A stretch of 63,713 bases of DNA, the filler included, from Folioceros fuciformis (Eukaryota): the NCBI GenBank assembly GCA_049999805.1. It is 6 parts of 6 records of this genome, joined end to end, with 100 filler letters (N's around TTAATTAATTAA, not from the genome) between each part and the next. Parts side by side here need not be neighbours in the genome. Positions count along the whole stretch, not along the records: positions 34,937 to 47,975 come from JBNGIO010005790.1; 5 more parts are not named here. One strand, 5' to 3'. The notes below the pieces were generated by a model. The model worked only from the letters and a program-made list of their open reading frames with translations. It ran no database searches and was not told the DNA's origin. The translations under genes were made by a program, and so were the position numbers. This document shows, piece by piece, positions 7,260 to 49,974 of this stretch (position 1 is its first letter; every line of letters starts with the position of its first letter).

Positions 7260-8441
7260 ATGGACGTGCCTGTGGAGCGGGTGCTGTTCTCCGGCGCGAC
7301 GCTGGCGCACATTGTGCAGGAGTGCAAGGCGGCGGCAGGGGACTGCGACGGGCTGCTGTTCGGGCATGTGCGGCAACAGACGATCCCGAGTCTGCAGGAT
7401 GACGAGGGGCCTGCGACGCGGGAGCAGGTTTCCGCCATGGTGACGGGGCATTTCTCGTCGGGGAGGGTGATGAGCTTCTACGATGCGGTAGGCGCGATCG
7501 ACCGGGCCAGGCTCGGGGCCATGGTAGGGGAACGGGAGGCGAGAGGAGCGGATCCGCTCATCGGGTGGTACATTGCGAGGAGGAATTCATCCATGAGGCC
7601 GTCCATGCGGGAGACTGCGGTTACAGCGTACTTGAAGCGGAGTGCTAGAGCTGATGCAGGCAGAGGGAAGGAGAGTGCCGGTGCGGACGCTCTCGTTGCG
7701 GGAGAGCCGCTCAAAGCGGGTGCGGATCCGGGTTTGCAGCACCTTTCGCAAGCGGGGAGGGGCGTGGGAGTGAGGTCGAGGCCGGTGCCGATTAGAACTG
7801 CAGTCTCCGAGTTGATTTCAGGCGGGGACGACGGGGCACTGAATGAAGCAGGGACGAAGGCTGCAGGGAGTCCTGTGGAAGTGCGGGCAGCAGGGCTGCC
7901 TGCTTCTGCTCCGTGTCTATTTCTGCTCATGGCTGAGTCTGAGACTCAGAATTTGGTGCTAACTCATGACTACCGAGCGTTTCAGTATCATCCCAGGTCT
8001 CAGGGGCGGGGGTCCTTCCAACCCCGGCCTGTCAGCATTGTCAATATTGGTCCCGTCTTCCGTGGACAGTATGATTCGTTTGCTCCTTTCGCCCCTTTCC
8101 CTCCCTTGACAGGGATTGTTCACGAGTCCGATGACGAGGATGGAAGCGAAGGTGCTGGCTGGCAAGGAAACCGGCCTATGTTTCGAAAGATAGGCGGCGG
8201 GAAGGACGTGGAGGCCGCACAGGCGCTGCTCAACGTGTACGCTGACGGGTTTTCTGTGGACACTCTTTTCAAGCTTGTCAGACCTGATAGATTAGGATGT
8301 TCAACGGAGTTAGAAGATTTGTATGCAAGGATGCTTTCTAAGCTGGAGGTAGTTGCAAAGCGGGTGCAGGAGAGCACTGCAGCTCTGGCTGAGCAAGAAA
8401 AGTTGAGAGCCAAGTTGAGAACCGAGAGCGAGCAATTCTAG
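7260..8441 (+). CDS. Abraxas/ABRO1 (FAM175)-like MPN- domain protein, single exon
   Basis: Plant-family motifs SGATLA, DGLLFG, SFYD, IGWY..RR...RPSMRE.AV, THDYRAFQ, IVNIGP.FRG.Y.SF.P, C-terminal coiled coil LEDLYARMLSKLE. Confidence 0.88.
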   Translation: MDVPVERVLFSGATLAHIVQECKAAAGDCDGLLFGHVRQQTIPSLQDDEGPATREQVSAMVTGHFSSGRVMSFYDAVGAIDRARLGAMVGEREARGADPLIGWYIARRNSSMRPSMRETAVTAYLKRSARADAGRGKESAGADALVAGEPLKAGADPGLQHLSQAGRGVGVRSRPVPIRTAVSELISGGDDGALNEAGTKAAGSPVEVRAAGLPASAPCLFLLMAESETQNLVLTHDYRAFQYHPRSQGRGSFQPRPVSIVNIGPVFRGQYDSFAPFAPFPPLTGIVHESDDEDGSEGAGWQGNRPMFRKIGGGKDVEAAQALLNVYADGFSVDTLFKLVRPDRLGCSTELEDLYARMLSKLEVVAKRVQESTAALAEQEKLRAKLRTESEQF

Positions 8442-24530: not shown

Positions 24531-27500
24531 ATGGGTGGCTCCGACCTTTGCGTGTTGTTCGCCGATTCCTTTGCGCATGGGGAAGTGAGGGACCATGTGG
24601 ACGAGGTGACTGGAGCGATTTTTTATTGCATTGCAGGATTGGTGGATTCTCTCCAGCTCCCCTCAGTTGCGGTGCTTTCTCTGAAACTGGATGTTGCAGG
24701 TGCGGTTCGATGAGCCGGTTGTCATCTGTGGATGTGAGGTGGTGGACGCTGGCGCTTCTTCGCTCTGTCCAGCGTTGTCGTTGAGGGGGTACGTTTGTTT
24801 TGGAATTTCACCTCGTTTCATGGCTTGTCGGGGATAGCAGGACTGACGGTGGGAATCTATTTGATGGGGCTGCAGGATCACCAGACCAGCATCCTTCCCC
24901 CTGGAGATATACGTTCGAAGTGGTGGCGATGCCCGGTTCAAACAGATTAGCCCTACTTTTTTGTATGCTTCATCTTCCTCCGAGCAGATCGATGTTCAGG
25001 TGAGCAGTCGAAGGATTTATTCCTGATTAACAGCTCTGTATGGCTTGGGCTGCAAGACCTGGAGTGTGTGGGCCTTAGTATGTTGCTCTTCCTTGTGGTG
25101 GTGGCAGGCTCTTGTGACTGACCATTTGGTTGTGCGGGGCCATTACTCTGCTCTTACCCTGGTGGTTTTCGGGAATGCTGTCGCTGATTTCTCGAAGGAC
25201 ATGGAAGTAGAGAATGCTACCATGTCTGAAGCGGCTAGCAAAGTTGAGGTATCGTGGCGTCTTCAGCAGCTGAAACTTATCTCGAACAGGTCGAGACAGG
25301 TGCCAGCTGTTAGGCAGCTGCTTCAGTTTGCCTTGACTGGAGATCATGTTTCTATAGATAGTAAATGGGTGCAAAAAGTGGTGAAGACTCTCCTTTCTGC
25401 CTCTTCTTCACTCTTTCCACCTCTCAGGAAGTTACATGGGCCTGCAAGTGTTAGCCGGTGGTCATCCTTTGTGAAGTACACTGCAGGTGAGGTCCAGGAC
25501 TCGCAGAAGGATGAGCGGAATGTAGATGATGTGCATGAGACTTTTCAGATTCTTCATGAACAGCTGCATGAGCAAGTAGAGCATGGGAAGAGCGTGGAGG
25601 AAATACTAGAGCCTCAATGTGCATCTGAAGGAAAGGTAGAGCCTATTGTTTTCAAACAAAGTCCTGGTCAGCAAGTTCTCAAGGACGAGGAATGTGGCAA
25701 ATGTCACCCTGAACAACAGTTGAAACTTCAGTCGGAGGCTGGGCAGAACCATGCGTGGCAGAGTGATGAGAAACAGAAGCTGGGTCCCCAGCGTCAAGAA
25801 AGTGAAAAGCAAGAGATTGCGGGTGACCATCAAGAGAAGCCAGAGGTTGAGCATGGTTATGAAGGGGAGCCAGAGACTGACAGTGATCATCAAGCGAAGC
25901 AAGGGATTGAGGGTCACCAGCAAGAGAAGCCAGAACTAGGGACTGACCAGCAAGAGAAGCCAGAGCTAGAGACTGACGAGCAAGAGAAGCCAGAGCTTAA
26001 GACTTACCAACAAGAGAAGCCAGAGATTGAGGGCGACCATGAAGAGAATCCAGAGATCGAGGGTGACCATGAAGAGAAGCCAGAGATGGAGGGTGACCAT
26101 GAAGAGAACCTAGAGATGGAGGATAGCCCTGGAGAGAGGCCAGAGATCGAGGGTAGCCATCAAGAGAAGCCAGACACTGTTACAGACGAAGAAGAGATTC
26201 AGCCCGAAGCACAAAAGGACCAGGAACGGAAGATAGAACCTCAGAACAACCAGGAAGGAAAGCCTGACTTCGAAGACAACCTAGAAGCGAGGCTTGACAT
26301 TCAAAACAACGAACAAAACCTTGAAAATCACGACCAAGAGGAACCAGTTGTAAAGGACCAGGAAGAGGAGCTTAAGAATGGGCAACGAGAGAACCCACAA
26401 CTTGAGTGTGACGATGAGGTGTGCGTGTCAGTAAAGAGCGTGGAGGTCAAAGATGACCATGACAACGATGGAAAGGCTGCTGGTGAAGGAGGAAGTTCAT
26501 TTGAAGAAGCCATGACGATGGAGGCGGATGATCATCACAGTAACGTGCTAGGATGTCTGACCGATGTTGATGAAGTCAGACTGTCCCCCATGATAGAGTT
26601 GATAGTTTCGTGGATTCAGGCTGGTGTGGAGCAAGCAAAAAGCTCCTCTGAGGGCATTATTCTGGTACTCCTACAGTTTTATATTTTCATAAAAAATTGG
26701 CTATTCGTGTCTCTCCTGGACTCTTTGTAACAGCACGAACTCTGCAGGTGGATAGCCTTATTGCAGGTCTGGCTGCTGCACAGCTAGTTTGTTTGGATGC
26801 TGAATGCTGCAGCAAATTTGTGGAGGTCGGTGGAATCAAAGTTGTGATGGATGTGCTAATGGATGGTGCTTTCGACAACTCTGCCATCTGTCTTCTGGCG
26901 CTCAGGGCTATTGAGTGCTGCTCTTGTCACGCCATAGCTTGTAATGCTCTGTCAAGCTGGCACAACTCCCAAGCACCTCCTGGGGGTGGACATATGGATG
27001 CATCTGTTTCCCCTATTCAGTGCACGCCTCTGCTGCAGCTTTTAGCTCAGCCTCTCAGGCAGCCTGTTGCTCAGCTTGTACTGTGTGTTCTCCAGAGACT
27101 CCGTGCTTCTGAAGCTGCAGCCACGTTTCAGGTCTGTCTTTTCATACAGGGCTTTTTTGCTTGTGCTTCTCAGTTGCTCAAATTGCACTTCTCACATACC
27201 GAAAACGAACTGCACCTGCAGTGCACCGCAGACATGGTTTTGCAGAAGTCAGACGAGAGTTGTGAATGTGATGACAGAAAGTTACTGGACAGAATGGCAT
27301 TGGCATTGACTGAGTTGCAGGTTTGTATGCATCTCTGTTGTGTTGAAATTGTGATGCAAAACCCAATGTCAATTGCATGTAGTCACAATTTCTTCCATAT
27401 TGTTATCTTCTCACTTAATTGAGCAGAAGTGTCTAGTCATCATGGATTCCACAGTGGAGGGATGTTCACCAATTCTATTGGCAAAAGCTCTTGGTTTCAG

Positions 27501-30500: not shown

Positions 30501-33500
30501 TGATAGGTCCCAGCAGCTTGTCAATGCTGGACTGGCACGTGCAGGACTCTCGTTTAGAGAAACTGCTACAGGGATTCGTCCCTCATCTGAGCTACCTGGC
30601 GGAAATGATTCTACAATACTCCACAACGGTACGCTCTGTACTCTCTTTGTCCTCGCAAATCATTTTTGAGTTCCTATGTCGCTCCATGTCAGATCTGGAA
30701 AGAAACTGGTTTCATGTTGTGTGCTTCTTTCACAGACCTGCGGAGTGTTGCGCAACTTACTGACATCTGTCGTGGGAAAACTGGCATGCAAAAACTGCAG
30801 TCATGCCAGTGTCCTAGTTAGTCCAGTGATGGCTTTTCTGAAGGAACACACAGATGGACGTGTGGCCTCTTCTGAACTTGACATCTGCAAGGTGCTTAAA
30901 ACTTCGTAGCATTCCATGTGATGTTCAGGAGGACGCAGTTTGGTGGATTATGGTTTCTGCTAGAAATCTGTGAATAACAGAATGTGTTGCATCCCCAGGT
31001 GCAATGTGTGTTGGAATTTGTTGCTCAGCTGGCTTTACACCCTGGTTCAAAGGTAGGCTTCGTGATGCTACAGGTTAGTTGTATGCCAACAAGTATTCCT
31101 TCCATTTACAGGTGTGTTTCTCAATGTGCCAGGCAGTTTTAATACAGGGAGGGATGGTAGATGTTTTGCTTCGGGTCGTTCAGGCTGAAAATCAGGGATT
31201 TCTTTTGACTGAAGCTAATCTGGATGAAGGGGCACTACATCATTTGAGATTGACATGCAGTTTGTTAAGTCTGAAAGCTATCACAGCCTTGTGTGATGTA
31301 GATATTTCCCGCCCTCCTATAGCATCATTGAAGAGGTATGCGGTTCTGAAAACGCTGACAGTTGCACTGTATCAATGGCATGTTATTTTAAGGAGAACGT
31401 AATATTAAAATCTTAGAACATCTATACAGACGGGCCATAGAAGATTGTCCAAGTCTTGGAGACTGTTGTCTGGTTGCTTCCACGCTTCTTTCTATCTTCC
31501 AAGTATGGTGTTCCATAACCAAGCATGGTCTTATGCAGATTACAGAGCTTGTCTTGAGGCTCTTGTATTCTGATGCATTGTTCCTGATCCCACAGGATGC
31601 ATCTCTGGATGTCGTGGATCATGTACTGGATGGGCTGGAAAAGCTATCAGGACATGATGTCGGGTGTGCAGCCTTCGCAACCGTTGCCCTACGATATCTG
31701 CCAGACCATGATGACGTTGGAAAAGTCCACGATATGAAAGCGGAAAATGGACAAGCAACTCAAGAGGTTGCACATTCGGATGTCGTTGAAGAAAAGCCTG
31801 CAGAAAGGAGCATAGATGACAAGAAGAGCCCCCCTTTTCTCATATGCTGGAAACGACTTTTGTGTCTACTTCAAGATGATGGTGCTTCGCTACCAACTGT
31901 GCTTCAAGCAGTTCACAAGTTGTCACGTACATGTCTGGCACTGGCCTCCAATGAAAGCAGGTTAGTGCGTCCTCGAGAAGACGAATGAGATGCAGACCAC
32001 CACTAATTTCAATTCTTTTCTGAACGAGGGAAGCTATTTCAATTGTGGATCTCTGCTGGTAGCGCGTCTGCAAATGCTGCAAGGTCGGGCAGTGTGCTGA
32101 TTAGTTCGGCGCTGATGTGGCAGATGTGGCTTTTTGGCCCTGAAGATTTTAACTGGCGTGGGCCCTGAAGCAGAGAGGCTTTCAAATGAAGAACTGTCGG
32201 AATCGGCGAAGTCTGTAGTAATTGCTGTGGAAGAGTTCTGTGAACGAGCTCCGCATCTTCTGGGAGATCTGACATCCGTTCCCTGTCCTGCTGGGATATC
32301 TATAGAGGTAGAGTTCTTGGGATGAAGAGTATTGGGTTTTAGATGCACATCTCTGACACGATTTGCTACTCCTGTTCACAGGTGAAACGACTGCTGAATT
32401 CCTTGCTGGACGTACTGGCAAGGCCAATGATCATGACGACGTGCACCTTAAGTGATGAGATTCAGTCCTTGATGAAAGGGATTTCTAGTCCTGATCCTCC
32501 AAGTGTGGTGAAAGACGAAGAAGCAAATGCACTAGGACCTTTGGGGACGGGATTTCTATGTGCGATGGAAGATTGGGATATGGAACCAGACTTACAGGTT
32601 ACAAGCATGGACAAGTCAGTGGATACGTCTTCCAAGCATCTGAGGGAAAAGTTTGTGTGGGAGTGTCCTGCGCTCAGACAGGAAAAACCTTTAGTGTCCA
32701 CCAATTTATCCAAGAGGAGGCCTATCACGACAGTTGACGTCGGGAACAAAAGGCATCGTGCAGATGTGATGGCAGCTGCCTCTGCTACCGAAGGTGTGTC
32801 AAGTGCTGGGGCTGGATCAACTGTGCAGTCTGCACGGGCTGGCGCTGCTGCTGTTAGCTCCGTTGCGCCTTCAAATCGACGGGACAGTTTCAGACAACGA
32901 AAGCCCAACACAAGCCGGCCACCATCAGTGCACGTAGATGACTATCAAGCCCGGGAAAGAGGTGCTACAGGAGGAAGGCCTCCATCCATTCACGTAGATG
33001 AATTTGTTGCCCGGCAGCAGCGTGAAAGAGTGCAACTGGCAGCCGCCCCAGGCAGCACAACTCATACTCTCACAGGGTTGCAAACCTCTTCTGGAGCGGA
33101 CACTCCTGGAATAAAGGAATCAGCTGGGGCGAAAAGTCAAGATGACAGTCAAGGGGATGCGGGGGAGTCTTCTGACTTAGCAGGTATCAAACCCGCAACA
33201 CAGTCCGATTTTCAAGGTTGCATGCTTTCATTGTGCAGAGAAGCATGTTGCATTGTATACCTGCACCTCAAACCAAAATGTGATTGCAGGGCAAGGACCC
33301 TCTCCAATGGATGTGGAACCATTATCTCGTTCCGGGGAGGTACAATGTGGTCAAGATGGCTCATCCACAGCAGTTATGGCTCATTCCGAATTAGAGAGGC
33401 AAAGCCGTGATGTAACCTCTCACAAGCAAGAAGGTGGCGCAAAGCGAGGACTGCAACCCACCACAAAAACAGCTAGTGCCCGAACTTCTGGCAAAAGTAA

Positions 33501-34836
33501 GAGCGCAGGGCCTCTGGTTGTCAGGCTTCCGGAATCTTCAAAATCAGCTCCTATGGCTACAGTAGTTTTGCCCTCACAGCGGCCACCTTCACCAACAGTT
33601 CTTCCCAGACAATCAGATCCTCAGACTGCATCTGCCAACGCGATGTTCACCGTGGGAGGAAGAGAACAGAGGCAGCCGCGTCCTGGAGTGACTTCGATGC
33701 ATGGCCAGGATTCACATCAGGTGCCCCTTGTGATGATGGTGTCTTCACCAACAACACGGGACATGAGACCGCCACCACTTCCGCTAAGGGGAGGGCTCGT
33801 TGAGGTGTATCCTACAACAAGCACAGGGGCAAGTTTGATCGGTGACGCGCAGAGAGAACGTGGTGGTGGGGAGTTTGCTCCTTCATTAGCACCCCCTCCT
33901 CCGCCTCTTTGGTTGTCAATGGATGCCCGTCGCCCGGACTCAACTTTACTTCAACCACCTTCAGTATCTCAACAGCCTCGTGGGCTGTTTCCTTTTTCCG
34001 CGCTACACCCTGAGCTGCCTGTTGGAGTGCAGGCTCTTGCACCACCTTGGCCTGGAGTAGTCAGCAATCCAAGAATGTTTGAGGAGCTGGGGCATGTCTT
34101 TGGAGGACCGGGCCGGCCATCGCATCTGCCCACTCTCCCCTCTCAACTTGCAGGCAGTCCACTGGCTGCAATGCAAGGACCTGGGCAAACTGGACATTCG
34201 GGGATGTCTGCCCAGCCATATGGGCAAGGAAGTCTGCCTTTGGAGACGAGACCGGCTTATTCTCTATCACCAAATGAACGCAGGTTTGGTGTCTATAATA
34301 CTCTGCCAGCAGTGTCGTTTGTCTCTGGCTATCCTCCTCCATCTCCAAGTTCCAGGCCACCAACTCCTGTCAGCCAGAGTCAACAACAGCAGCAACACCA
34401 AATGCTGCAGGCTCAGCAACTACAGATCCAGCAGCAACTGCAGCTGCAGCAACAAACACAGTTGCAACAGTCATCCCAGGTGCAACTAACACAGCAGTCG
34501 CAAGCGCATTCACACCAGCAACAGCAAATTCAGCAGAGTCAGCGTACACACCAGCAGCTTCAACAACAGCAGATGCACCAACATCAGCAGCAACAGCAGA
34601 AGATCCAGCAGCAGCAGCTGCAACAACAACAACAGCAACAAATACAGCAGCAGCTTCGCCTGCAACAGCAACAGCACCTGCAGCAGCAGCAACAACAGCA
34701 CCTGCAGCAGCAGCAACAACAGCACCTGCAGCAGCAACAACAACAACACCTGCAGCAGCAACAGCAACAACAACACCAGCAACAGCAGCAGCAGATACAA
34801 GTGCAGCAGCACCAACAGAACCTTGCGCGCCCAGTA
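24531..34836 (+). CDS. VIR: VIRILIZER (VIRMA/KIAA1429, EMB2016), m6A writer complex subunit; many exons, 3' end cut by contig end
   Basis: N-terminal LCVLFADSF.H....HVDE|VRFDEPVVI, FPLEIYVR, LVTDHLVVRGHYSALTLVVFGN; C-terminal KFVWECP, RRDSFRQRKPNTSRPPSVHVDDY, RPPSIHVDEF; Pro-rich and polyQ tail. Confidence 0.93.
25820..26180 (+). repeat. 30-bp coding tandem repeat (HQEKPEIEGD-like) in VIR
   Basis: CAAGAGAAGCCAGAG/GAAGAGAA recurs at 30-nt spacing, in frame. Confidence 0.88.
34381..34820 (+). repeat. CAG/CAA polyglutamine tract in the VIR C-terminus
   Basis: In-frame Gln-dominated stretch with HLQQQQQQ repeats. Confidence 0.9.
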
Positions 34837-34936: not shown

Positions 34937-35341
34937 AGAGATTACTCAGCTTGGCTGGAATCGTCTGAACGGCATCGAAGTTGCGCAGCACCACCATGGC
35001 TCTGCCAATCACCCACAGCAAGTTAGGAAATTTGCAGCGCAAGGCTGCAGTGGGAGCAAAATGGCAACCACTTACCATAGCGAATGATGAGGCAACCTTC
35101 GTCGGAGAATTCACTTCCTGCATACATAAATCTGTCCATGCAATTGGGCAGGAATCACCAGGGAGCATCATCGACAAGTCGCGGCAAACCTTGCGCTGTG
35201 CGGAACCTAGCGTGAGCCAATTCAAGCTCCTCTTCCAGTGTGTACAGCTGTTTGAAGCCGGAACAGACCTTGCAAGGGCGTCGTCGACGCAGGAGACAAA
35301 GGACCGGCACGATGAGAAGCACAATGCATGCTAAGTGGGAG
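34937..35341 (+). mobile_element. 3' internal end and PPT of an upstream copy of the same copia family, sharing the LTR at 35342
   Basis: Near-identical to 41072-41618 apart from a ~140-nt deletion; ends in PPT AAGTGGGAG. Confidence 0.85.
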
Positions 35342-38300
35342 TAAAAATATAAATAAGTTGAAGGTTATTTATTTAAAGTAGCCTGCATTTAATTAATAAT
35401 AGTTATATATCGAAACTTTAGATACATAAGGGTGCATAATGAATGGTCGTGACCTAACTAACTCAACAGCCACTTTCACGGGACACCGTGAACCGGTGTC
35501 CCCACGCCTTCAAGAAGGCCACACGACCTTCCATAATTTACTTCTTACTTTCCTACACATTTGCTTCTAGCACGATCCTCTACTTTTATCTTTATGGTAT
35601 CAGAGCTGTAGCATGGATTCAGTCAATCCCTCCCAACAAGTCTGCAAAATTTGCGAAAGCAAAGATTGTATTAAAAATCTGCCACATGCATCTTTTTGTG
35701 CAGCCATTTCAGCACTTAAAAATGCATTAAGCAGATTTGGGAAGATGACTGAACAATTCTTGGAAAATGTGGTAGAACATTACTACTCTTAAGTGTCTAA
35801 GCATTATGCCGAGGAATAGAGGCAAAGGTTGTAGCAATCTTACGCTGTCTGCTGAGAGTGAACGCCAACTCCATGCTAGAATTCCTGGAGAGGTCTTCGA
35901 AAATCATATGCAAGTCTTAGAAAGGTTCTTTAACAATCACTGCAAGAGTCTTTACCAGCAGAAACAACATCAAGTTAGTAAAAATCAGCAATCACTGAAC
36001 AATAATCCAATTCCAACATTTGGATCACGCACACAACCTAGAGAGAATTTGCCTTGTTCACACCACATTCCTCAGCAAAGTTTGTCAAGATTTGTAGCAC
36101 CCCGTCCCACTTTATGTCATACATGTACTGATAGGTATAATTCCTTTCCACTTCCTTCTGATCAACTCGTTGTTGATGTGTATGAACTAGTAAAGTCACA
36201 AGGCCAGATAACCAGGGGTAGAATCACTGCATTAGAAGATAGATTAGTAGCAAACAACACTAAATTGGATGCACTAAGCCTGCAAAGTCGCAACCTAGCC
36301 ATCATCTCACAATCCCAGGAGAAACATAAAGAACCTGAGTATTTTTGAGCATTATGGTTTTGAGAACCTGCAAGAGCCAATTGCTCCAGTTGTACTTGAG
36401 ATGAAGGCAATCGTTGATTCTCATATTAAGGCACTTGACGAGATGGAGTCACTTGTACCAAAGTGCACTCAATAATTCTGAAATTGTGTACATGTCACAC
36501 GGCGGACGTGGAGGCAGAGGCAATCGTGGGCGCTACCACCTACAACACGGAAGATGACATGATTCTGACGAGGAGGATACTGAGCATTCAGAGGAAATTG
36601 AAACACGACCTGTAGACAAAGACGTTGAGCAGGCACCTAACCAGGCTAGCTCGTCGGTCCATCATCATCCTACACCTCATCAAATTAGAAATCTGGCTCA
36701 GTTAGCTGCAGCTGCACAAGCTGCACAAGCCGCAAGGGCTGCAAGATTAGCAAGGGCTGCAGCTGCACAAGCCGCCAAAATGGCACAACCAGTAACACAT
36801 CTGAAGATAGATTTTAAGGAAAAAGATAGGTTCTCAGGGTCCAATTTTGATATCTGGGCCATGCGTGTCACCACCATACTTTGAGAGCATGAGTTGTGGG
36901 ACACAGTCAGTGGTACTAATGCCAAGCCTAGAAACAATGCTACAGTAGCAAAAAAGGCGGCATGGGCCAGATTAGACCTTAGGGCACTAGGTGTCATCCA
37001 ATCAACCCTTGATGCATCCATGATGCATCATACACAAGGTGCTGAAACAACAAAGGACGTCTGGGACTCTCTAACCCAAATATATCAAGTTACAAATGGA
37101 AGTTCAATAGTGCAGGCCACAAGGGCCTTTTATACTTGCCATATGAAGGAGAATGAAACCGTTGAGCAGCACATCATTAAGTTTCGAACACTTCGAACCA
37201 AGCTCATCTCTAGTGGAACACCAGTCAATGAGCTTCAAGCTTCAGTGGCCCTCCTTCTTTCATTACCGGACAGCTATCGAACATTTATAAGCAATTATAG
37301 CTCTACACTTAGAGCAGCAGGTCAGCCACCAGGGATCACTCTCTCTGACCTAATTGGAGCTCTTCTCGAGGAGGAGTCCACACATGCTACCAGGCGAGGA
37401 AGCAATTTCCAGAGAGGTGAGTCCTCCAACAGGGTGGGTGCTCTACATGAACAAGGGCCCTCGGCGACCACCTTCTCGACCATCCTGGCAGCCTAACACC
37501 AACAATGCTTGTAAGAAACGGTCTCCACAAGCTGGACCTGCAAAGAAGAAGGGGCCCTGTAATTGGTGCCTCATACCTGGCCATTACGAATCAGAATGTC
37601 GTAAGAAAAAGGAAAATGAGCCTCGGAGGTCTGCACCTCCACCTGAGTCTAACATAGCACAAAGAAAGTCACAAACTTTGCTTGCTGTATGCCTTGTGTC
37701 CACAGCTTCAGATCAGTCCGCATGGTTTCTAGATTCTGGAGCATCAGCTCATTGCTTTCAGTCAAGGCAGGCATTCTCTGAGTATGAAAAGATACCACCT
37801 GGTCAAGAAGTCCTCATGGGTGATGACAGGGGTAGTCCCATTGCTGGTGTAGGAACAGTTTCAATACTACTTTCAGATAAGTCCACACTGTACCTATAGG
37901 GTGTCCTCCATGTTCCAGCTATGGTTAAGAACTTAGTAGCATTATACAAGTTCTCAATAGAAACTGGTCTTGACACTTCCTTTCGTGGCACCACTTGTGT
38001 CATTTCTAATCCAAAGTCCAAAGGGAAAGTGAAAGCCATAGGCACACCTGTCAATGACATTTACAAATTAGACTTTGTTTCTAAGCTATGCCAGCCTCAT
38101 GCACATGTTACCCAAGCTCAGCAACAGGAGAAGGATGCCATGCTATGGCACTGCCGCTTGGGGCATGTTAACTTCGATAAGTTGAAGACTATGGTGGCAT
38201 CTAACAGCCTATACAGAGAAAAGTTCATGCTAAAATTTGCAGACAAGCAGTTTTGTGAATCCTGTGTATTTGGGAAGCATCATCGACTTCCCTATAAAGA

Positions 38301-41300
38301 TGTCAACCCAACTAAAGCAACAAAGCTACTGGAACTTGTTCATTCTGACCTTTGTGGACCTATGTCCACATCTACCTTTGGAGGAGCAAAATATATTTTG
38401 TCCTTCATTGATGATTGGAGTCGATACATCACTGTATATCTGATCAAGTTCAAAAGTCAAATCTTGGGATGCTTCCAGGAGTATGTCATGTATGCGTAGC
38501 ACCAAACTGGTTCTCTCTTGAAAATTCTGAGCAGTGACAATGGTGGCGAATATGTCTCAGATTCCTTCTCGGATTATTGCAAAGAGTTGGGGATATCCAG
38601 GCAGTTTACCACACCTTATACATCGTCGCAAAATCCGATTGCAGAATTGAATAATTGCCGCCTCTAGGAAATTGCAAAGTCAATGCTCAAGCTGGCTGGT
38701 CTATCCCGCGGCTATTGGGGTGAGGCCGTGGCCACAGCAGCCTACATCATTAACAGGTTGCCAACAAGTGTGTATGAGGGAGCAACTCCTTACGAGCGGT
38801 GGACTGCACACAAGCCACGCATCAACCACTTAAGAATCTTTGGAGCACTTGCCTATGCACACCTGTCAGAAGACCAGCGTGTAAAGCTTGATTACAAAGC
38901 AAGGAAGTTTGTCTTCATTGGATACACACAGGGTATAAAAGGGTACAACTTTTCGACCCTGACACTAGAACCACTACGCACTCACGTAGTGTCATCTTTA
39001 ATGAACAGCTTCTACTCAAAGCACCAGCACTTGACAGTGTGAGAGAGGCATCAAGTGAGTCAACATACCCTGAGTTAGAGGATGACCACATAGATGTTAG
39101 TCACCCTCCAGCAGCACAAGTGCCAGCTGCACCTGCTCAAGTATCCAGACCGCCTAAAGGTATAGATTCAGTGCCAAGTCATTTCCTTGATGACGATTTG
39201 CACATCCATGATGACGTAGCATCAGATGCACATGGAAATAGTGACCTGGACATTATGTTAGATGAAACATCAACAGTTGTACCTGTTCCAATCATTGAGC
39301 CAGAAGTTGAGCAACCAACAGTCTTGTTACGTAGGGGCACTGACCTAGGAACCAGGAGGCACACCTCTTCACCATCTGAATGGGTGAACCTGCCTCTTTG
39401 GCCTTAAACCTTTCTAGTACAAGATGACAGTAACCCCATGGACATGGGTGATCCACCTACTTATCAGGCAGCACTTAACTCACCTGATGGTGAGAAATGG
39501 AGAGAGGGTATTCAATCTGAGTACCAATCGCTTGTGGACAATAAGACATGGGTCCTTGAAGATCTTCCGCCTGGAAGAAAGGCTGTTACCTGTAAGTGGG
39601 TATTTAAATGCAAGTTAGATGCTGAAGGCAAAATTGCACGCTACAAAGCCAGATTAGTTGCTCGGGGGTACAGCCAAGTTGAAGGCTTGGATTATAATGA
39701 AACCTTCTCACCAGTGGTGAGGGCATCTTCCATTCGAGCTCCATTGGCAATAGCAGCACAGCATGACTATCTCTTACAGCATATGGACGTTAAGACCGCC
39801 TTCCTCAACGGGAACCTTGAGGAAACTATCTACATGCAGCAGCCTGAAGGGTATGTAGATCCTGCACATCCCACCAAAGTTTGCAGATTAGTGAAAACTA
39901 TCTATGGGTTGAAGTAGTCTCCCAGGGAATGGTTCAAACGAATCGATACCTATTTGAAAAAATGTGGGTTCGTCCAAAGCGAGGCAAATAGTAATGTATA
40001 CATGCTGAATGACAAAGATGGGATAGTCTACTTAGCTCTCTATGTAGACGACACGGTTATAATAGCAAGCAATCCAGCTGCCATGGCCAAATGCAAAGGT
40101 TTCTTGACAACTGAGTTCTCTATGACTGATCTTGGTCAGTTGACTTTCTTCTTGGGTATCCGTATTCAGCAAAACCTGCAATGGCATATGATATTCATAC
40201 ACCAAGGGCAGTTTGTTCAGCAGGTGTTAGCTAGATTTCGGCTGCAAAATGCAAAAACCAGCTCCAACACCGATGGCAGTGGGAGACAAACTTACACTAG
40301 CGCAATGTCCAAAGACTGAACAAGAGAGCACTGAGATGGCCAAGGTACCTTATCGATCTGCAATGGGAGTATGTATATATTTCCGTAATTGGACAAGGCC
40401 TGAGCTTGCACATTCAGTGGGAGTAACCTCGCAATTCCTATCCAACTACGGAAATGCGCACTGGCATGCAGTCCAACGAATATTGAGATATCTTGGTGGC
40501 ACACCAAATCACGGGCTGTTATACATTAAAAGACCATAGAATCTCCTACTAACCTGTTTCTGTGATGCTGACTGGGCATCCGATGCTAACAGTCGTAAGT
40601 CGATCTCAGCACACTGCTTATTACTCGGCAAGGATGAATGGAACTCAACAGTCATTGCATGGCATAGTAAAAAGCAACAGGAAGTTGCTTTATCGTCAAC
40701 CGAAGCGGAATACATCTCTACTACTACAGCATCTCAGGATATCATACATTGTAGAGAGCTCCTAGGGTCTTTGGGAGCACCTCAACCTGCGCCAACACTT
40801 TTGTTAAGTGATAATCAATCTGCAATAGCTTTGGCACAAAATCCTGTCATGCACGCATGTACAAAACACATAGAGATTAAGCATCATTTTATCCGTCAGG
40901 TGATAGCAGAAGGCCAAGTCACATTACAGTATGTTCCAACAGATGCAAACATAGCTGATCTGCTTACAAAAGCCTTGCCTAGGGAAAAACATGAGAGATT
41001 CGCCAAGGCACTGGGTCTGTCACCTAATCCTGATGCATGAAAGCACCACACACTCTAACCACTATGCATACAGAGATTACTCAGCTTGGCTGGAATCGTC
41101 TGAACGGCATCGAAGTTGTGCAGCGCCACCATGGCTCTGCCAATCACCCACAGCAAGTTAGGAAATTTGCAGCGCAAGGCTACAGTGGGAGCAGAATGGC
41201 AGCCACTTACCATAGCAAATGATGAGGCGACCTTCGTCGGTGAATTCACCTCCTGCATATATAAATCTGTCCATGCAATTGGGCAGGAATCGTTAAGGAG

Positions 41301-41870
41301 CATCATCGACAAGTCGCGGCAAACCTTGAGCTGTGCGGAACCTAGCGTGAGCCAATTCAAGCTCCTCTTCCAGTGTGTACAGCTGTTTGAAGCTGACGCA
41401 GATTTTGCAAGGGCGTCGTCGATGCAGGAGACAAAGGACTGGCACGATGAGAAGCACAATCACAGTCTCCAGCTCGAAGACGGCCATGCTCATTGCCGCC
41501 AGTTACTACCGACACCGACTGGAACCCTAGCTGCTTGACAACGCAAAAGTTCTAAGTACCCGATGCTGGAAGAGGCGAAATGCCGAGTTACCAAGGGTGA
41601 ATGCATGCTAAGTGGGAGTAAAAATATAAATAAGTTGAAGGTTATTTATTTAAAGTAGCCTGCATTAATTAATAATAGTTATATATTGAAACTTTAGATA
41701 CATAAGGGTGCATAATGAATGGTCGTGACCTAACTAACTCAACAGCCACTTTCACGGGACACTGTGAACCGGTGTCCCCACGCCTTCAAGAAGGCCACAC
41801 GACCTTCCATAATTTACTTCTTGCTTTCCTACACATTTGCTTCTAGCACGATCCTCTACTTTTATCTTTA
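35342..41870 (+). mobile_element. Full-length degenerate Ty1/copia element (LTRs 35342-35594 and 41619-41870, PBS 35595-35606, gag-pol ~36780-41040)
   Basis: LTRs differ by 3 substitutions and 1 indel; PBS TGGTATCAGAGC; CNWC-H-C knuckle, WFLDSGAS, WHCRLGH, HSDLCGP, YKARLVARG, LYVDD, KHIEIKHHF; several stops and frameshifts. Confidence 0.96.
41081..41493 (-). pseudogene. Putative spliced antisense accessory gene of the copia element (~112 aa, N-terminal hydrophobic helix)
   Basis: ATG at 41493; intron 41210-41137 (GTAAGT..CCTAAC..TGGCAG); one internal stop lies at a different codon in the second copy. Confidence 0.5.
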
Positions 41871-44800
41871 GAGAGGCTCCTATAAGATCAGGTGAGCCTG
41901 TAGGAGGAGGTAGTTATTCACTTTGGGAGTCAGTGTACCACTTTGTGAGCTCTTGGAGGTACTCTCTACATGAGCTCTTGTGGTATGTCCCTACTTGGTT
42001 TAGGACCTGCAGTGTGTTGCTGGCTGTGCAACGTCTGGTAGGATCGCAAGCCGCGTGTTGCCGGTTGTACAGTGTCTGGTAGGATCACAAGGTGTAATGA
42101 CCAGGGTGAAGGGGCTTGCCCCTAGCTCTTGATTGTAAAGGATGTGTCTTTCTCTCGACCTGTCCACTCTTGTTCTCTGTTTGGACAAGTGCTGTAGGCC
42201 GGTCATGTTTGATGGCGTCTGGTAAGGTTGTGAGGAGGAGATACCCGAGAGAGGAGTGTATTCCCTTCTTTCTTTTCTTTGGGGTTGGTCTAGTGACTCT
42301 TGCCGGGTAGGAGGAGTCAATAGGGAAGTGTAGAAGGTAGTGGTGTCGTTGTTAGTTGCTGGTGTTGGTGCTGGAGTGAGAGAGCGAGTGAAGTGAGTAA
42401 GGGAAGTCGCAGATCCGAGAGGTTAGGGTCGTTGTAGTGACTGGACTGAGTTTGTGGGCACCGAGAGAGGTGCAGCTGACCGCTGGATAGTGAGGCCTGT
42501 CCTACGCCTGATTGGAGTTGGAAGGGAGCCCTCGAATCCATCACCGAGTCGATTGAGTCCGACCCTCCTTCCACAGTAGCAAGGAACCCCATCGCTCCTT
42601 CATGGGAACAGAACCCAATGTCTCAACGACAGTGGGATAAGTGTGGCCACTAAAGGTGGAACCCGTCAGCAATCAGTGCCCGGGGTTTTGCCTCCACACT
42701 TAGTCTGACCAGTCTTGGCTCTTGCACCTGTGTTAGCTGCCCCCTTGCTAGAGAACATGGACTGGTAGTACGTGAAAGCCTTGGAATGCCAAGAGGCATA
42801 GGCCGAGAAGGCTACCTCCTTCTTCTCAGCTTCTTCATGCACTTGCTCCAAAGTGTACTTGTCCCCATATTTGTCCACCGAGGACGTAACCAGCTAGAAA
42901 TGAAACAACGGGTCTCCTTCAAGTGTAGTAAAAAACCTCTGCGCTGCTTCCTGATTTGTTAACATCCCTGTACCTTCCCTCAATTTCTGTAGCCTTCTGA
43001 AGCGCATATGGTATGTCTCCCCCTTTTGCGAGCAAAGGCAGCAAGTTCTGCAATTTTCTCTGGGGTCTTCAATGGGAATGCCCTCTCCAAAATAGCTAGG
43101 AACTCCTCCACTGGGTTCAGGTACTTGCAGGTGTGTGTAGAAACTCTTGCACACCAGCTGTGGCAGTAGCCCGCTCTGCTAGTGTCAAATTCACCACCGT
43201 TGGAGGTAGTGTGGTGGCGAAGATGGTCTTGGCTACAATCTCTGCTTGATGGTCGTTAATGGCTGCTGCCAATTTGGCATTATATGCCAACTGCAGAGCC
43301 GAGTGATGGGCAAGGTTAGGAGTGGCAATTGTGCTCGACAGCTCAGCCTGGTGAGCCTCGTACAAATCCAATGCCTCATCTACTAAGTAGCTGGACAACT
43401 GTTCAAACATGTACTGGTGGTTGTAGGCAGCACCATGTTTGAACTTCACTCTGCTGATGACTGCATTGATGAACAAGCGAAAGTCCCTTAAGGATTGGGT
43501 GCTTGGTCTACTTGAGAATTTCTCCGCCCTAAGCCCTGATGAACCACCCTCCATGATGTCTTACCCTTTAGACAGGTCACCCTGGCCTTGCCCTACACCA
43601 AGGACAAACCCAGCAAACCCCGGATGTGTTTGTTGTGACCTCACAAATGAGGGCTGTGAATTGGGAGACCCTTGTTGTCCAGGTTCCTCATGACAAACTA
43701 GCTGACCCCTTAAATCTGAGCTAGTTAGCACACCAATCTTGCTCAAGTCTAAGAGGGGTGACCGGTTGGGTTGCCCAATGGATGTTGCTGGTTCCAAGTC
43801 CTCTCTCAAGTCTTCTTCACTTGCAAGTTGGCGTCGTCGAGCTGCCCACCTTCTCCTCCGCTGTGCACGCTCCGGTGATGCCCTAATAGGAATGTGTCGA
43901 CTCCTCAATCGGTAACGTGGGCTGGCCTCTTGCTGATCTAGTTGCATACCCCATGCACCCCTGTTACACCTACAGCTGGTGCTTGGCAAAGACAGTGAGG
44001 TGTTGTGCTGCAAATGACAGCACCGGGCATGGGGAAGTGACTCTCGCTGGGATGCCACACACTGCTTCAACTCTACCCACAGGACCCTTCTACTAGCTAT
44101 TGCTGGCCCCTAAATCAAACCCCTGTTCACAAAGGCAAAACGAGCCGCTAAACGTGTGGTTCCAAAAAACCATGCGTGCCTCTCAACAAATGTCACCAAG
44201 AACTGAGGGTTAGTTCCTCCCAAATTCCTAGTGGTGGCCTCCCTTCGTGCCACGTCTGGTAATAGCTGTAAGCTGCCCGCCCCACAGTCTAAATGAGTGT
44301 GAGCAAAGCTCAGCTACTCCCTACCCAGATAATCCTTGTTTTGGGAAAATCGTAGCCCTGGAAATCTCAATTCCCTAGGCTTGCTGGGCAAATGTAGCTG
44401 TGATTAGGAAGCAAAGAAACACAACTTTCTTGGAGTCCTAAGGGAACAAGAAATCTACCTCTACCCAAAGCATCCATGATCAGCCATGTCCCTCTTCCTG
44501 CAGTGATATGATCCGCAATGAAGATCAGTCCTTGGAATCAGCTTAAAAGCAAGCACAAAGCATACCAAAACGTTTGCCTCTACAAGAAAAATATGTTGGT
44601 ATGTAGATCAAAGGGATCCAAGTGGAATTGCGGCCGTTATGTCCTCCTCTTGCAGTGATCTGATCGACACTGAAAATCTAAGATCAGTCTCTGGAATCGG
44701 CTCAAAAGTAAGTGCAAAACATACCAAAATGTTTGCCTCTTCAAGAAAAATCTATTGGTATGTAGATCCAAGGCATCCAAGCGGAATTGTGGCCGTTATG

Positions 44801-45741
44801 TTCTCTTGAAGTTTGGCGTCCACACCCTCAAACCCCAAACCCGAGGCTTAAGTGCGTGAAATGCTGAGCGACTTGCTAGGGCTGCCTCGATGTGGTTTCT
44901 TAGCAGTGCCTTAGCTGCCAGCTCTCCCGAGCCCTGTCTAAAGAGCCTTGGATCAACATGTGGCTGCTGCGAGTAGAAAGGTAGTTGCTACAGCACTAAG
45001 CAGGCACCTTCCAAACTCACGGCTGCTACAAAGGAAGAGAAGGATTCTTCAAGGCTGCTGCCGGAATGCACATGTTTGGCCGCGCCCGTAGAGTCCCTAC
45101 AAACCCTAAATCCCTAGCAATGCAAAGGGAAAATGAAAGACTTCACACAAACGGGTCTGGATGGGTGCTCCACAAATGCTACCTTGCTGTAGCTGCTTGG
45201 CTGCGCTCTAAGAGCTCCTTGCCCATGCCCTCATTGCCTGATTGAAGCAGTTGTTGAAGTAAGATGTTAGGCTGCTCACATGCGCCATAGCTCACTCCGT
45301 GTCGTAAAGCAACAAAAAGGGGGCTGCCCAGAGTTAGTAAGTCACTAGTGGGATGCCACCATCTCCTTACACCCACAATCTGCACCAAATAGCTCTTTCT
45401 TTCATAGACGGCTAGTGAACAACCAAAAAAAGGGTTTAGGTCTTCCGGTGGTTTCTCTAATGAGCAACTTTGACAACTGCCTTTCTCCTCGCCGTGTTTG
45501 GTCTATTAGTTTGGTGCCCTTCCAAGCCATTTCCTGTGGGCTGTATGAGCCCACACACTTCTAGTGGGCAAGTAGCCCTGGCTTGTATTTCAGCCATTTA
45601 CATAATTTAGGTTGAGACAATTCTTTTACCTATTACTTATCTTATTTCCTATTATTAAATCAGCTAATTTAGGTGAAGTTAGTTTAATCACCTATTATCT
45701 AATCAGCTGAATTCCACTAAACTATCACGTTCAGCATGACA
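41871..45741 (-). mobile_element. Degenerate gypsy-like element: long LTR ~44191-45741 and gag remnants ~42666-43560, interrupted by the copia
   Basis: Inverted termini TGTCA...TGACA; gag-like LRAEKFS..., LSSYLVDEALDLY, QKGET..MRFRRL; a ~150-bp duplication inside the LTR. Confidence 0.6.
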
Positions 45742-46757
45742 GTCTCCTATAAGTTCATTTTTGCCACAATTTCACGATAAGGCTGGCCGAGAGGTATAAA
45801 AGGGAATGGGATGAGGCAAGAGCCAAGGTTAGGAGTGAGGCAAGAAGACCGAAGAAGGGAAAGGGTTCAGCCACCGCAGTGGCCGAAGTAGCAACCGTGG
45901 TGGGATCAACCATGGTTGCCGAAACAACAACCGGTGTGGCTGAACCAGCCACCATAGTGGAAGGAGGAATGGAAGTACTGGAACCAACCACCGACGAAAC
46001 TATGGCAGGGGAGCATGCAACACCCCTGGAATGGAGGAGGCAGCCACCCTAGGACAGTCAATAGGAGGAGAGGGTAAGGACCTCTTTAGCAGGGGGCCAT
46101 ATTGTGTTGCGACATAGGGATGAGGATACCCATGTCCCTGGCTTCCAATTATATGGTGAGCGGGTGCTCGCTCTAAATGTGTATGTGGTGGTTCTATAGC
46201 GGAGATGGGCACACTAGTCTAGGGGCAAACTAGGTTAGGTTTTTATTAGAGAATAGTATGCTAATGAATTATGATCCAAAGATTGTTGACTTTAGGAGCA
46301 TGCCAGGAAGGTATAATCATTTCTTAAGACTCTGAAAGGTTGCGATAGTAATGGTACTCCAAGGCTGAATGTACAAGGGGCCTTGTTATGTCTCTCAAGG
46401 AGACAATTTCAGGTGTGAGCTTCCATGTGTTGAATTTGTGCGTTGTGGGTTGGAGACATCCAATCGATGAAAGCATGATTCGGCCTGCTGTCCTCTTGTC
46501 ACAAGAGGACCAGGACGATCCTTGGGTGGTCGAGAGCTGTGTGACCCAGCTTCGCGACTGGTGTGGCTAGTGGAAGGGGTGCTCCGCACCTGTGAGAAAG
46601 AGAAATTTTTGAAGAAGGTGAGGGTGGTAACGCAAGTTTCGCGAAACCCCTGGAAAGTCGAGAGGGAGCGCGTTTTCACAAAACTCTTGTAAAGCCGTCC
46701 GACTGTGATTTTTCCCTTCCCCACTCTACTGTCTAACTAGGCCGTGTTTAATCTCTA

Positions 46758-47010
46758 TGAGGGGTTTGTGTAACCCAAGGAGGGGTTTGTGTGGCCTAAG
46801 GAGGGGTTTGTGTGGCCCAAGAGGGGATTGTGTGTCCCAAGGAGAGGCCTGCGTGGCCTAGGAGGGGACCGTGGGTCCCAAGAAGACGCTTGTGTGGCCT
46901 AGGAGGGGACTGTGTGTCCCAAGGAGATTCCTGCGTGGCCTAGGAAGAGATTGTGTGTCCCAAAGAGAGGCCTATATGGCCTAGGGAGGGGTCTGTCTGA
47001 CCTGTGGAGG
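46758..47010. repeat. Degenerate ~21-bp tandem repeat
   Basis: AAGGAGGGGTTTGTGTGGCCT-like units, about 11 copies. Confidence 0.8.
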
Positions 47011-47229
47011 AGGATTGAGTGAATATTTGGTGCGAGAGAAGTGTGAGTGTTTGAAATTGTGAAGCGCTGAAGAAGATTGGAGGTAGATTGTGTGGAGCAT
47101 CAGCGATGCAATCAAGCGTCGTGGTGTGGTTGGCCCTAATCTACATCTACAAGTGAGATTTGGGTGGAAAATAACATGAGTATGACTTTGTGTGCATGAG
47201 AATCAGCCTGCACAGACCATAGCTCTATA

Positions 47230-47975
47230 GGGTTATCAAAGCCCAATGTGATTAGACTAATGTGTTTAGTCTAAGATTAGTGTCTAGTTAAGTATCATTA
47301 GTTTAGATTAGCTTAAGCTAATCTATAGGAAGCTTCTTGCGCAACTTCCTGTGCGCTTCTTGTGAAGCTTCCTAGGGAGCTCTTCTAGAGGGTATAAATA
47401 CCCCTTTGAGCTCCCTTGCTATAGAGACTCATTGTGAGAGTGTGACCTCTCTTTCTCCTCCTTGCCTCCTCCTCTCATTCTTCACCATGTAGCTCCTGTA
47501 GCGGTCCTTCAAGTGGTATTAGAGCCTGGTTGTGTAGCAAGGTGGTGTCTGTAGGTGATGCGGACAAGTGAGGAGTGCACCGGAGTGAGACAACCTCCGG
47601 CATCCGGGGGTTCCGTGTGCACCATCCCGAAGTGTAGGGTCTCAACCCCTTAGGCCAGAGCGCAAAGCCCGAGTTGGGAGCTTGGGGTGCCGGGAGCTCG
47701 GGGTGTGGAAGCGCGGGGAATCTGCCTGGGGCGCCATCCGCACCAGGCGCCACATCGAGAGTGCCGGGCGCCAGGCGAGGCGCCACTAGGCGCCCAAGCC
47801 ACGGGGGCTACCATCCCGCACGGGCGCCCAACCCACAGGGGCGCTAGGAGGGCATCGCCAGGCCCCTGGAGCCAAGGCCACGGGGTGCCGGCACACTCAG
47901 GTAGGCCCCTGGCCGCGGGGGTGCAAGCTAGGCCCCGCCCTGGGAGAGGCACCTACCAGGGCGCAAACCCAGCCA
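47230..47975 (+). mobile_element. Probable LTR end, iMet PBS (~47514) and 5' internal region of another retroelement
   Basis: TATAAATA, then ...CTTCA AG TGGTATTAGAGCC; the LTR start is uncertain. Confidence 0.5.
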
Positions 47976-48946: not shown

Positions 48947-49974
48947 ATGCCGTCTGAGGGTACAGATGCCGGTGTGAAGGCAGTTGAGCTGAGGTGCGCC
49001 GCGCTCATAAACCTGCTATTCTTGATTTCAAGATTGCTTTGTGAGCTCCTTCACCAGAAGGTCGAACAACTGCTGCTGCTCACCGCCGCTACCATGTCTT
49101 CAGATCCCTTTGATCACACACCTGGACGCCGCCGCCACAACCGTGATGCTCTAGGGCGATTCGCGCTAAGGACAACTACCACAGAGCCCAAGGTTGAAGA
49201 GGAGAAGAGGATCCTGCCCGTCGGAGTGAAAAGGAAGGTCGGTCGGCCGCAGGGAACAACCAAGGGTTTCCTCGAGTGGCACAGGCTCGGTGTGCTGTAG
49301 GGTGAGCCCAGCATGGCCGGTCCTTCGGATCTTCAGCATCATCCGCCACCACCCCCGGTGCTTGAGGAGGAGGTGGTTATGCCCTTCACCAGAGTGCTCA
49401 ACCTGGATGTGGCTTACTACAGCAACATCTCCAAGAACCGCATCCCTGTGAAGCTTCCGAAGCCCATCTGCCGTGGTGAAGAGACGAAGATCGTGAACTG
49501 TGGCACGCTGGAGTTCCCTTCGCTCTCTGATCTGGTACAGAGCCTGGGTTGGTCTTGAGGAGCTGATAATGAAGCGGGTGAAGGTTCTTCGATGTAGATG
49601 CTTCCCTGGACATGTCGTAAGTCTATACAATAAGTATCTGCTGCTTCCCTTTCTTGCTTTCGCTGCTACTACAATTTCTGTTTGTAAGTTTCCTTGTTTC
49701 TTTAACACTTGCTAATTGCTCCCACTTACTGTGGACAGAGTCCAACAAGCGGATCAAGGAGGAAAGAAAGTTGGAGGATGGAGGGAGAGCTTCCGGTTCA
49801 GAGGTCAAGCCCAAGGGAGGATATCACTTGAAGTCTTGCAAAGAATGGTCGCCCGATGCCTACTACGAGACTGAAACTGAAGATGAGTCAACCTTTGACA
49901 CTATTGAGGCAAGAACTGAGATAGAGATAGAGTTGATTTCTGATTCTGATAATTCAGTCTCTTCGGGCTTTTAG
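48947..49974 (+). pseudogene. Putative spliced antisense accessory gene of the copia element (~301 aa; AT-hook-like motif, acidic tail)
   Basis: ORFs at 48947 and 49313 share a frame; intron 49617-49738 joins them in frame to the 49654 ORF; the three stops are TAG, TGA and TAG. Confidence 0.55.

Follow-up and report, generated by a model that had tools for sequence, protein, structure and literature searches.

A probably spliced antisense gene in a copia retrotransposon

In the genome of the plant Folioceros fuciformis (assembly GCA_049999805.1), a group of Ty1/copia long terminal repeat (LTR) retrotransposons carries a two-exon open reading frame (ORF) antisense to gag-pol, and comparison of aligned copies shows the signatures of purifying selection at the protein level and of inheritance with the polymerase. 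The ORF is almost certainly a real coding gene, very probably spliced as drawn here, and the element probably uses its product, since selection has preserved the gene across the family. The copy described in detail, of a kind referred to as type A, lies at positions 41081–41493 of a 63,713-nucleotide (nt) stretch joined from parts of six records of the assembly (the window), in the part taken from JBNGIO010005790.1 (window 34,937–47,975). An earlier note on this DNA had proposed a spliced antisense ORF for a small protein with a hydrophobic anchor at this position, and the two-exon ORF is confirmed; recurrence at 48 of 51 loci and the frame test described below support its coding nature. The spliced frame of the window copy comprises 112 codons in two exons, with one internal stop.

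41211–41493, minus strand: exon 1, 283 nt, 94 codons plus 1 nt, ending in phase 1
41425–41481, minus strand: predicted single transmembrane (TM) helix, residues 5–23, mean Kyte-Doolittle hydropathy 2.57
41137–41210, minus strand: intron, 74 nt, phase 1, after a Tyr codon, with GTAAGT donor and GCAG acceptor
41157–41162, minus strand: branch motif CCTAAC inside the antisense intron
41184–41191, plus strand: second, inner copy of the polypurine tract (PPT) core of the element, AGTGGGAG, within the antisense intron
41081–41136, minus strand: exon 2, EPWWRC...QPS, 18 residues including the junction codon, then a stop
41649–41660, minus strand: TATA-like motif, 30–40 nt inside the LTR edge, facing the antisense direction, candidate promoter of the antisense gene

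The reading frame begins with MSMAV...PCKIC at a minus-strand ATG at 41493, and exon 1 encodes, in order, a short N-terminus, a hydrophobic helix, a basic patch, a CxxC motif, a helix and a conserved LPNC segment. The TM helix was called from the best 19-residue hydropathy window alone, and four Lys or Arg residues fall within the 12 residues that follow it in this copy. An internal TAA at codon 67 (41293–41295) truncates the protein downstream of this start, and the window copy of the gene is dead.

The host element and its tandem neighbour

The gene sits downstream of the pol stop (41040) and ahead of the PPT in an element with Ty1/copia organization. The domains run from gag through protease barrel, pre-integrase, integrase SH3-like and RVT_2 to the RNase H end, with the Pfam families PF14223, PF22936, PF13976, PF25597 and PF07727 following one another in gag-pol as in Ty1/copia, and two LTRs, a primer binding site (PBS) and a PPT complete the structure of such an element.

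36885–41040, plus strand: gag-pol, decayed, in several ORFs, Ty1/copia order
41610–41618, plus strand: PPT
41619–41870, plus strand: 3′ LTR, 252 nt, ends TA...TA
35342–35594, plus strand: 5′ LTR, ends TA...TA, doubling as the 3′ LTR of an upstream tandem element
35595–35606, plus strand: PBS, TGGTATCAGAGC
34937–35341, minus strand: antisense gene, second copy, where the contig begins; 94% identity to the first

We take the PBS to be of the tRNA-Met type. The two LTRs differ by three substitutions and one indel (98.8% identity) despite the many breaks in gag-pol. Damage of the kind left by repeat-induced point mutation was considered as the origin of the TA...TA ends and rejected, since the host is a plant and the LTRs of type-A elements begin with TA in 20 of 30 copies (TG in the other 10). 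A placement of the antisense gene inside the LTR was likewise rejected because the PPT and the LTR edge lie upstream of the gene.

In the second copy of the antisense gene, a deletion of about 142 nt takes in the start codon; this copy represents the 3′ end of the upstream tandem element, with which the first element has an LTR in common. Its stop falls one codon later than the codon-67 TAA of the first copy; the two copies thus stop at different, adjacent codons, just as the earlier note described. The note had also taken the splice signals common to both copies as support for the gene. The signals are indeed present, but the argument from two copies does not hold by itself, because tandem copies that are 94% identical are expected to have them in common by descent, and the two window copies alone are unable to demonstrate selection. 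Identical copies of the antisense ORF 6–14 kb apart on three further contigs (G000:C4399, C6177 and C4366) suggest further tandem arrays.

Conservation of the gene across the genome

A search of the 87-Mb assembly with exon 1 gave 60 matches, examined as 51 loci. At 48 of these the ORF lies antisense beside an RNase H end (34/35 in a first set and 14/16 in a second); among the remaining three, two stop at a contig edge, and for one the retrieved stretch contained no RNase H match. The position and phase 1 of the intron are kept in the 35 copies of the first set, and the preceding codon is aromatic throughout, Tyr in all but one. Intron length varies from 74 to 95 nt and is not bound to multiples of 3: the three remainders on division by 3 are represented by 13, 5 and 17 copies. 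A GT donor is present in 29/35 copies, an AG acceptor in 32/35 and a branch-like motif in 35/35, and 31/35 are free of stops at both codons where the window copies stop, in agreement with the proposal that the gene was open in the lineage; this support does not extend to the particular ancestral codons, Pro-Trp-Arg, that the note had inferred. A search for a copy with an intron-less junction gave no match in the genome (the control gave one), which is expected for an intron that is antisense to the element but does not demonstrate splicing. The single RNA run at hand covered no part of the gene, which speaks neither for nor against its transcription.

Identity and selection were evaluated on 15 representatives, hand-picked to cover the subfamilies. 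Mean identity reaches 65% in exon 1 (last 150 nt) and 64% in exon 2, compared with 56% in the intron, 53–54% in the flanks and a baseline of 47% for shuffled introns. This contrast between exons and intron, drawn from the 35 copies, together with the frame test, marks the gene as more than a chance ORF.

For the frame test, the ratio of nonsynonymous to synonymous differences per site (pN/pS, Nei-Gojobori counts) was obtained for the 105 pairs of the 15 representatives, with exon 2 medians over 81 pairs. In the spliced frame the descriptive values are 0.50 for exon 1 as a whole, 0.38 for codons 29–94 and 0.41 for exon 2, with 0.23 for RNase H as a comparison, and third codon positions are the most variable. 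The alternative frames of exon 1 give 0.98 and 1.34 in antisense and 1.05, 0.61 and 1.32 in sense orientation, and those of exon 2 give 1.19 and 1.19. Among the frames compared, clear purifying selection is thus apparent in the spliced antisense frame only, and it is strongest in the predicted cytosolic C-terminal half of the protein, not in the helix. The earlier note had named a check of the dN/dS type, which supports the gene in this form, and had suggested that another frame might be the conserved one. That objection fails for the 134-amino-acid frame (0.98) and for a 144-amino-acid sense frame (1.05), and the 140-amino-acid ORF, which lies outside the 3′ LTR, was rejected.

Inheritance with the polymerase was evaluated with a quick tree of reverse transcriptase (RT) and RNase H from elements of this genome (86 rows, 25 of them type A). 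Not included are seven near-duplicate loci, four rows of insufficient coverage and one locus that yielded none. On one branch, with a Shimodaira-Hasegawa-like approximate likelihood ratio test (SH-aLRT) value of 99, are found 24 of the 25 type-A rows and none of the 61 rows from other groups, with the limit that type-A loci were found via the protein itself, so that clade members lacking the gene would escape. At the locus of the single outlier (L037), which sits on a long branch, a second polymerase unrelated to the first is also present. Distances in exon 1 correlate with those in RNase H (Mantel rho 0.38, a value reached in 12 of 5000 permutations). The single branch and the correlated distances together indicate that the gene is a heritable part of the clade.

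Candidate promoter and inner polypurine tract

The TATA-like motif that faces the antisense gene is found 27–48 nt inside the LTR edge in 24/26 type-A copies and on the opposite strand in 1/26; as the pattern was tuned on the same 26 sequences, it is to be regarded as a lead only. The inner PPT core occurs in exact form in 13 of 35 type-A introns from several subfamilies, where 0.08 would be expected from base composition (the copies are related), and in five of seven further introns that could be resolved. With a slightly looser pattern it is present in 30 of 37 loci of a second family, type B, described below. In most types of element a second PPT core is seen 7–360 nt past the pol stop, usually within the antisense intron. 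On the simplest reading the inner PPT would be a second plus-strand priming site, which we infer from its sequence and position; it could instead be a splicing element.

Predicted properties of the protein

Eight type-A rows are longer than 80 residues. In all of them a 19-residue hydrophobic stretch starts 2–7 residues after the start, with a best 19-residue hydropathy of 2.25–3.06, so that the TM prediction named as a check in the earlier note comes out in favour of an anchor, and the protein is probably membrane-anchored. By the positive-inside rule, a charge bias marks the cytosolic side of a membrane protein, and basic residues outnumber acidic ones after the helix in seven of the eight rows, which suggests a cytosolic C-terminus. 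The CxxC motif is present in 7/8 rows, and four Cys positions recur. A structure model has helices at residues 3–29 and 33–59, the second of about 27 residues.

Searches for relatives of type A, whether for homologues, families or folds, used exon 1 only, and the libraries are poor in intron-split or unannotated proteins of plant elements, so that blanks among homologues carry little weight. None of 8000 scored candidates (lengths 26–170) was a homologue at E≤0.01. The single match among 1.84 billion representatives, a repeat-rich protein of 1006 amino acids aligned over 27 positions in 11 stretches, was judged spurious. No homologue was found in the ESM Atlas (best 0.78), no match in a phage search, and no Pfam family at E≤0.01, including TRP28 (PF04195), PMD (PF10536) and SMC-like families. 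The exon-1 model had no match among viral structures at E≤0.001, which does not show a new fold.

Antisense genes in other copia clades

A second copia element of the window also carries an antisense gene in its 3′ region, which is decayed in this copy.

48947–49974, plus strand: type-B antisense gene, two exons
48947–49629, plus strand: exon 1
49630–49738, plus strand: intron, donor AT in the window copy, followed by an acidic exon 2
49719–49726: inner PPT copy within the intron

This gene is real and widespread. The end of its exon 1 is found in 37 of 61 copia 3′ regions, one of them doubtful, in a non-random sample made up of the window element and 60 others chosen by RNase H similarity to it. 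Among the other 36 loci, 29 have a phase-1 GT donor after the same motif, and most have the acidic exon 2; the domain gives 98 matches in the genome. Type-B proteins comprise a hydrophobic N-terminus, an RDxxGRF motif, a GRP motif, presumably AT-hook-like, a 60-residue beta domain, the phase-1 intron and an acidic tail. The beta domain was modelled at a predicted local distance difference test (pLDDT) score of 85–94, and the model has no match in the PDB and a best VIA Z of 3.4, which does not show a new fold. No homologue of the domain was found among longer proteins and none in the Atlas, and a single weak Pfam hit came from 1 of 16 rows. A Met residue recurs after the type-B helix and might start a soluble isoform. 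A TT donor is common to a near-identical type-B group (L046, L047, L050 and L052).

Types A and B are alike in position, orientation, hydrophobic N-terminal segment, phase-1 intron after Tyr and inner PPT. A profile comparison of the two gives a probability of 14% over seven aligned columns, and 0.4% with exon 1 alone, too little to show homology. In contrast, types D and E, from more distant clades, are homologous to the B domain (88% and 86% over 47 columns). The earlier note had raised the question of whether the two window families form one clade; in the quick tree they fall in separate clades, with no supported branch joining them. Its suggestion that the layout of pol, antisense spliced gene and LTR recurs is upheld, both by the 48.9–50 kb family and by further copia clades, and the architecture recurs across copia clades of this genome.

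Several further antisense ORFs were observed beside these. Type C, of about 200 codons and with a different conserved domain (L076, L077, L089, L091, L092 and L094), is nested in the type-B clade, an apparent gene replacement. Type E (L061, L062, L063 and L071) apparently has several introns, with the B-like domain at the end. Type F is an ORF of about 130–150 codons (L064, L068, L069 and L070) that has no evident intron in L068 and L069; in L060, a member of that clade, stop and PPT are just 40 nt apart, an apparent deletion. One element and the last element of the window leave almost no space for an antisense gene.

Elsewhere in the window, a GC-rich, single-exon-looking Abraxas/BRISC MPN-domain gene lies at 7179–8441, and long open frames at 25027–26730 and 32343–34836 measure 567, 355 and 552 codons; they contain internal repeats and no Pfam family over the cut-off. 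A host gene of the window matches proteins of land plants at 43–44% at best over its length. The genome also contains genes for the RuBisCO small subunit and two exon-sized LCIB matches above the Pfam cut-off; among land plants, LCIB has been reported from hornworts alone (PMC8075897). Gene content therefore points to a probably hornwort-like host, with a streptophyte alga as a less likely alternative.

Discussion

Based on these observations, we favour, with a confidence somewhat above even, the reading that type A is an accessory gene specific to a single Ty1/copia clade, which encodes a trans-acting, cytosol-facing membrane protein. Transcription would start from an antisense promoter where the 3′ LTR borders the interior of the element, and the transcript would then be spliced. 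Retrotransposition would leave the intron in place, because the genomic RNA corresponds to the other strand and the template therefore never loses it by splicing. An intron on the antisense strand stays in the genomic RNA; retrotransposition reporters use the reverse arrangement (PMC12786077, partial text). The product would cross the membrane once, with a very short N-terminus outside or in the lumen and some 85 residues, Cys among them, forming a cytosolic domain. It may be a trans-acting membrane adaptor by which particles of the element, or a host factor, are attached to the endoplasmic reticulum or the nuclear envelope; this role, likened to that of the small accessory membrane proteins of retroviruses, is a tentative assignment that falls short of even chances. 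Of the possible roles we rank the membrane adaptor first, an anti-silencing or regulatory function second and movement third.

Several points weigh against the accessory membrane protein. No copy among the 35 combines open exons with canonical splice sites, and the six fully open copies carry either an AT donor (four) or a TG acceptor (two). The AT donor is common to five near-identical copies (L012, L013, L014, L017 and L024), and elements with splice damage have therefore multiplied or been duplicated. It follows from this group that splicing is not required in cis and has possibly been lost in that sub-lineage; the spread of the AT donor may fit a protein that works in trans, one that is not needed in cis, or a loss within the sub-lineage. 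Young copies may have been collapsed by the fragmented assembly. With respect to selection, the hydrophobic codons 1–28 are weakly constrained (pN/pS 0.84), and the near-saturated synonymous sites and the non-independence of the pairs make the pN/pS values descriptive. The mirror sense frame also has a low value (0.61), but it contains 40 stops compared with 13 and has its wobble positions in common with the antisense frame. Furthermore, CxxC is missing in one of the eight long rows, the C-terminal part of the structure model is of low confidence (pLDDT 43–62), and the protein is tied to capsids, membranes or a host factor by anatomy alone.

Among the alternatives, a membrane-tethered and possibly metal-binding anti-silencing or self-regulatory protein, a reduced relative of the type-B proteins with their basic, DNA-binding-like motifs, is rather unlikely. 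It would account for the features that types A and B have in common and for the four recurring Cys positions, and for known antisense-ORF (aORF) proteins a nuclear location or predicted DNA binding has been described (PMC7264820; PMC11963269, partial text). Against it stand the low values of the profile comparison of A and B, and the absence from type A of an AT-hook-like motif or a long basic region. We consider it unlikely that type A is a cell-to-cell movement factor, like sORF2/FAST of the Drosophila MDG1 element or the small TM movement proteins of plant viruses, which would allow particles to enter neighbouring or germ-line cells. According to the accessible part of 10.1101/2025.03.14.642691, sORF2 is a small single-pass protein of an env-less LTR element with a basic patch after the helix, and the 112 residues and one hydrophobic helix of type A agree with the features listed there. 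The juxtamembrane patch, for which sORF2 needs at least three Lys or Arg in 15 residues, has 3–4 such residues in 5/8 rows (approximate window), and the cytosolic helix is moderately amphipathic (0.24–0.42). However, the same source, as far as accessible, gives a required ectodomain of 10–50 residues and frequent myristoylation, whereas the N-terminal segment of type A has 2–7 residues and the MGxxxS/T motif is found in none of the eight rows. Moreover, sORF2 is encoded on the element's own transcript in Ty3/gypsy, unlike the antisense, spliced type-A gene; plant cells are walled; and the most conserved part of type A is the cytosolic C-terminal half rather than the helix.

That the antisense RNA or cis elements such as the inner PPT or RNA structure are what matters, with the frame a by-product or a decaying relic, is highly improbable. 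Such a view finds agreement in the inner PPT copy conserved within the intron, in the lack of any examined copy that is both open and canonically spliced, and in antisense promoters without a protein, which have been described for other elements (PMC7264820), but it would leave unexplained the codon periodicity and low pN/pS in one frame on either side of an intron of variable length, and the lower identity of intron and flanks (53–56%) relative to the exons (64–65%). An intron of host type and a TATA-like promoter motif would be accounted for by a fragment of a host gene, transduced once and carried passively. Against this stand the 48 of 51 loci beside RNase H with none shown outside an element, the near-saturated synonymous sites in the presence of a conserved protein, and the absence of a homologue elsewhere in the searches made; we assign this origin a nearly negligible probability.

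Unlike type A, the antisense ORFs of LTR elements are known mainly from Ty3/gypsy. AtRE1 is a copia element with non-canonical TA ends, comparable to the TA at the start of 20 of 30 type-A LTRs. An antisense promoter is reported for AtRE1 (Kato 2005 as cited in PMC7264820), but the accessible part of PMC7264820 reports no conserved protein-coding antisense gene for it. In the interval between pol and the 3′ LTR, antisense ORFs occur in Grande of maize (gene23), RIRE2 of rice, Retand of Silene, PvRetro13 of bean and Boty (PMC7264820). Type A resembles the aORF-3R class in being antisense between pol and the 3′ LTR (48/51 loci) and, subject to the protein-based finding of loci, in that most members of the lineage carry it and its protein sequence is conserved; members of the class are likewise conserved like element proteins and have no host parent (PMC7264820; PMC11963269, partial text). 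It differs in its Ty1/copia host, its length of 112 codons, the intron, the predicted membrane anchor and the absence of TRP28 or PMD. The brtn gene of a Boty-like Ty3/gypsy element of Botrytis is also an extra antisense gene in the same position, but its element is a fungal gypsy (cited in PMC7264820 and PMC8365987, partial text). As for plant copia, the env-like eORF-3′F of SIRE occupies the same interval and is the only regular extra ORF reported in the accessible text of PMC6317226, but it is in sense orientation and of at least 250 codons. In the same survey by Neumann, as far as its text is accessible, eORF-3′R is recorded for 86% of Retand and 60% of Ogre, while most copia lineages are entered with a dash and SIRE with 1%; two small values stand for Bianca and Ikeros, in columns that could not be resolved. 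The survey applied a cut-off of 250 codons in a single ORF (PMC6317226, partial text) and would therefore be blind to a two-exon gene of 112 codons. No spliced antisense gene of a plant copia element was found in the literature searched, mostly without subscription papers, and a review calls for a search for antisense and spliced transcripts (PMC7264820).

Plant copia elements have been treated as gag-pol only, save for the sense env-like ORF of SIRE. Several copia clades of this genome have antisense genes that appear selected, encode orphan proteins and are associated with a candidate LTR promoter and an intronic second PPT, which suggests that copia annotation in seed-free plants misses a class of genes. 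With small, defined proteins of this kind, the function of antisense aORFs becomes testable. A more far-reaching proposal, which we regard as quite unlikely, is that the copia elements of this plant lineage possess an undescribed class of intron-containing, LTR-driven antisense genes with an intronic second plus-strand primer site, and that type A is a movement factor acting through plasmodesmata or into gametes, as an env-independent counterpart of infectivity. If the protein does move particles between cells, it would be a rare example of a retroelement that spreads within an organism of walled cells.

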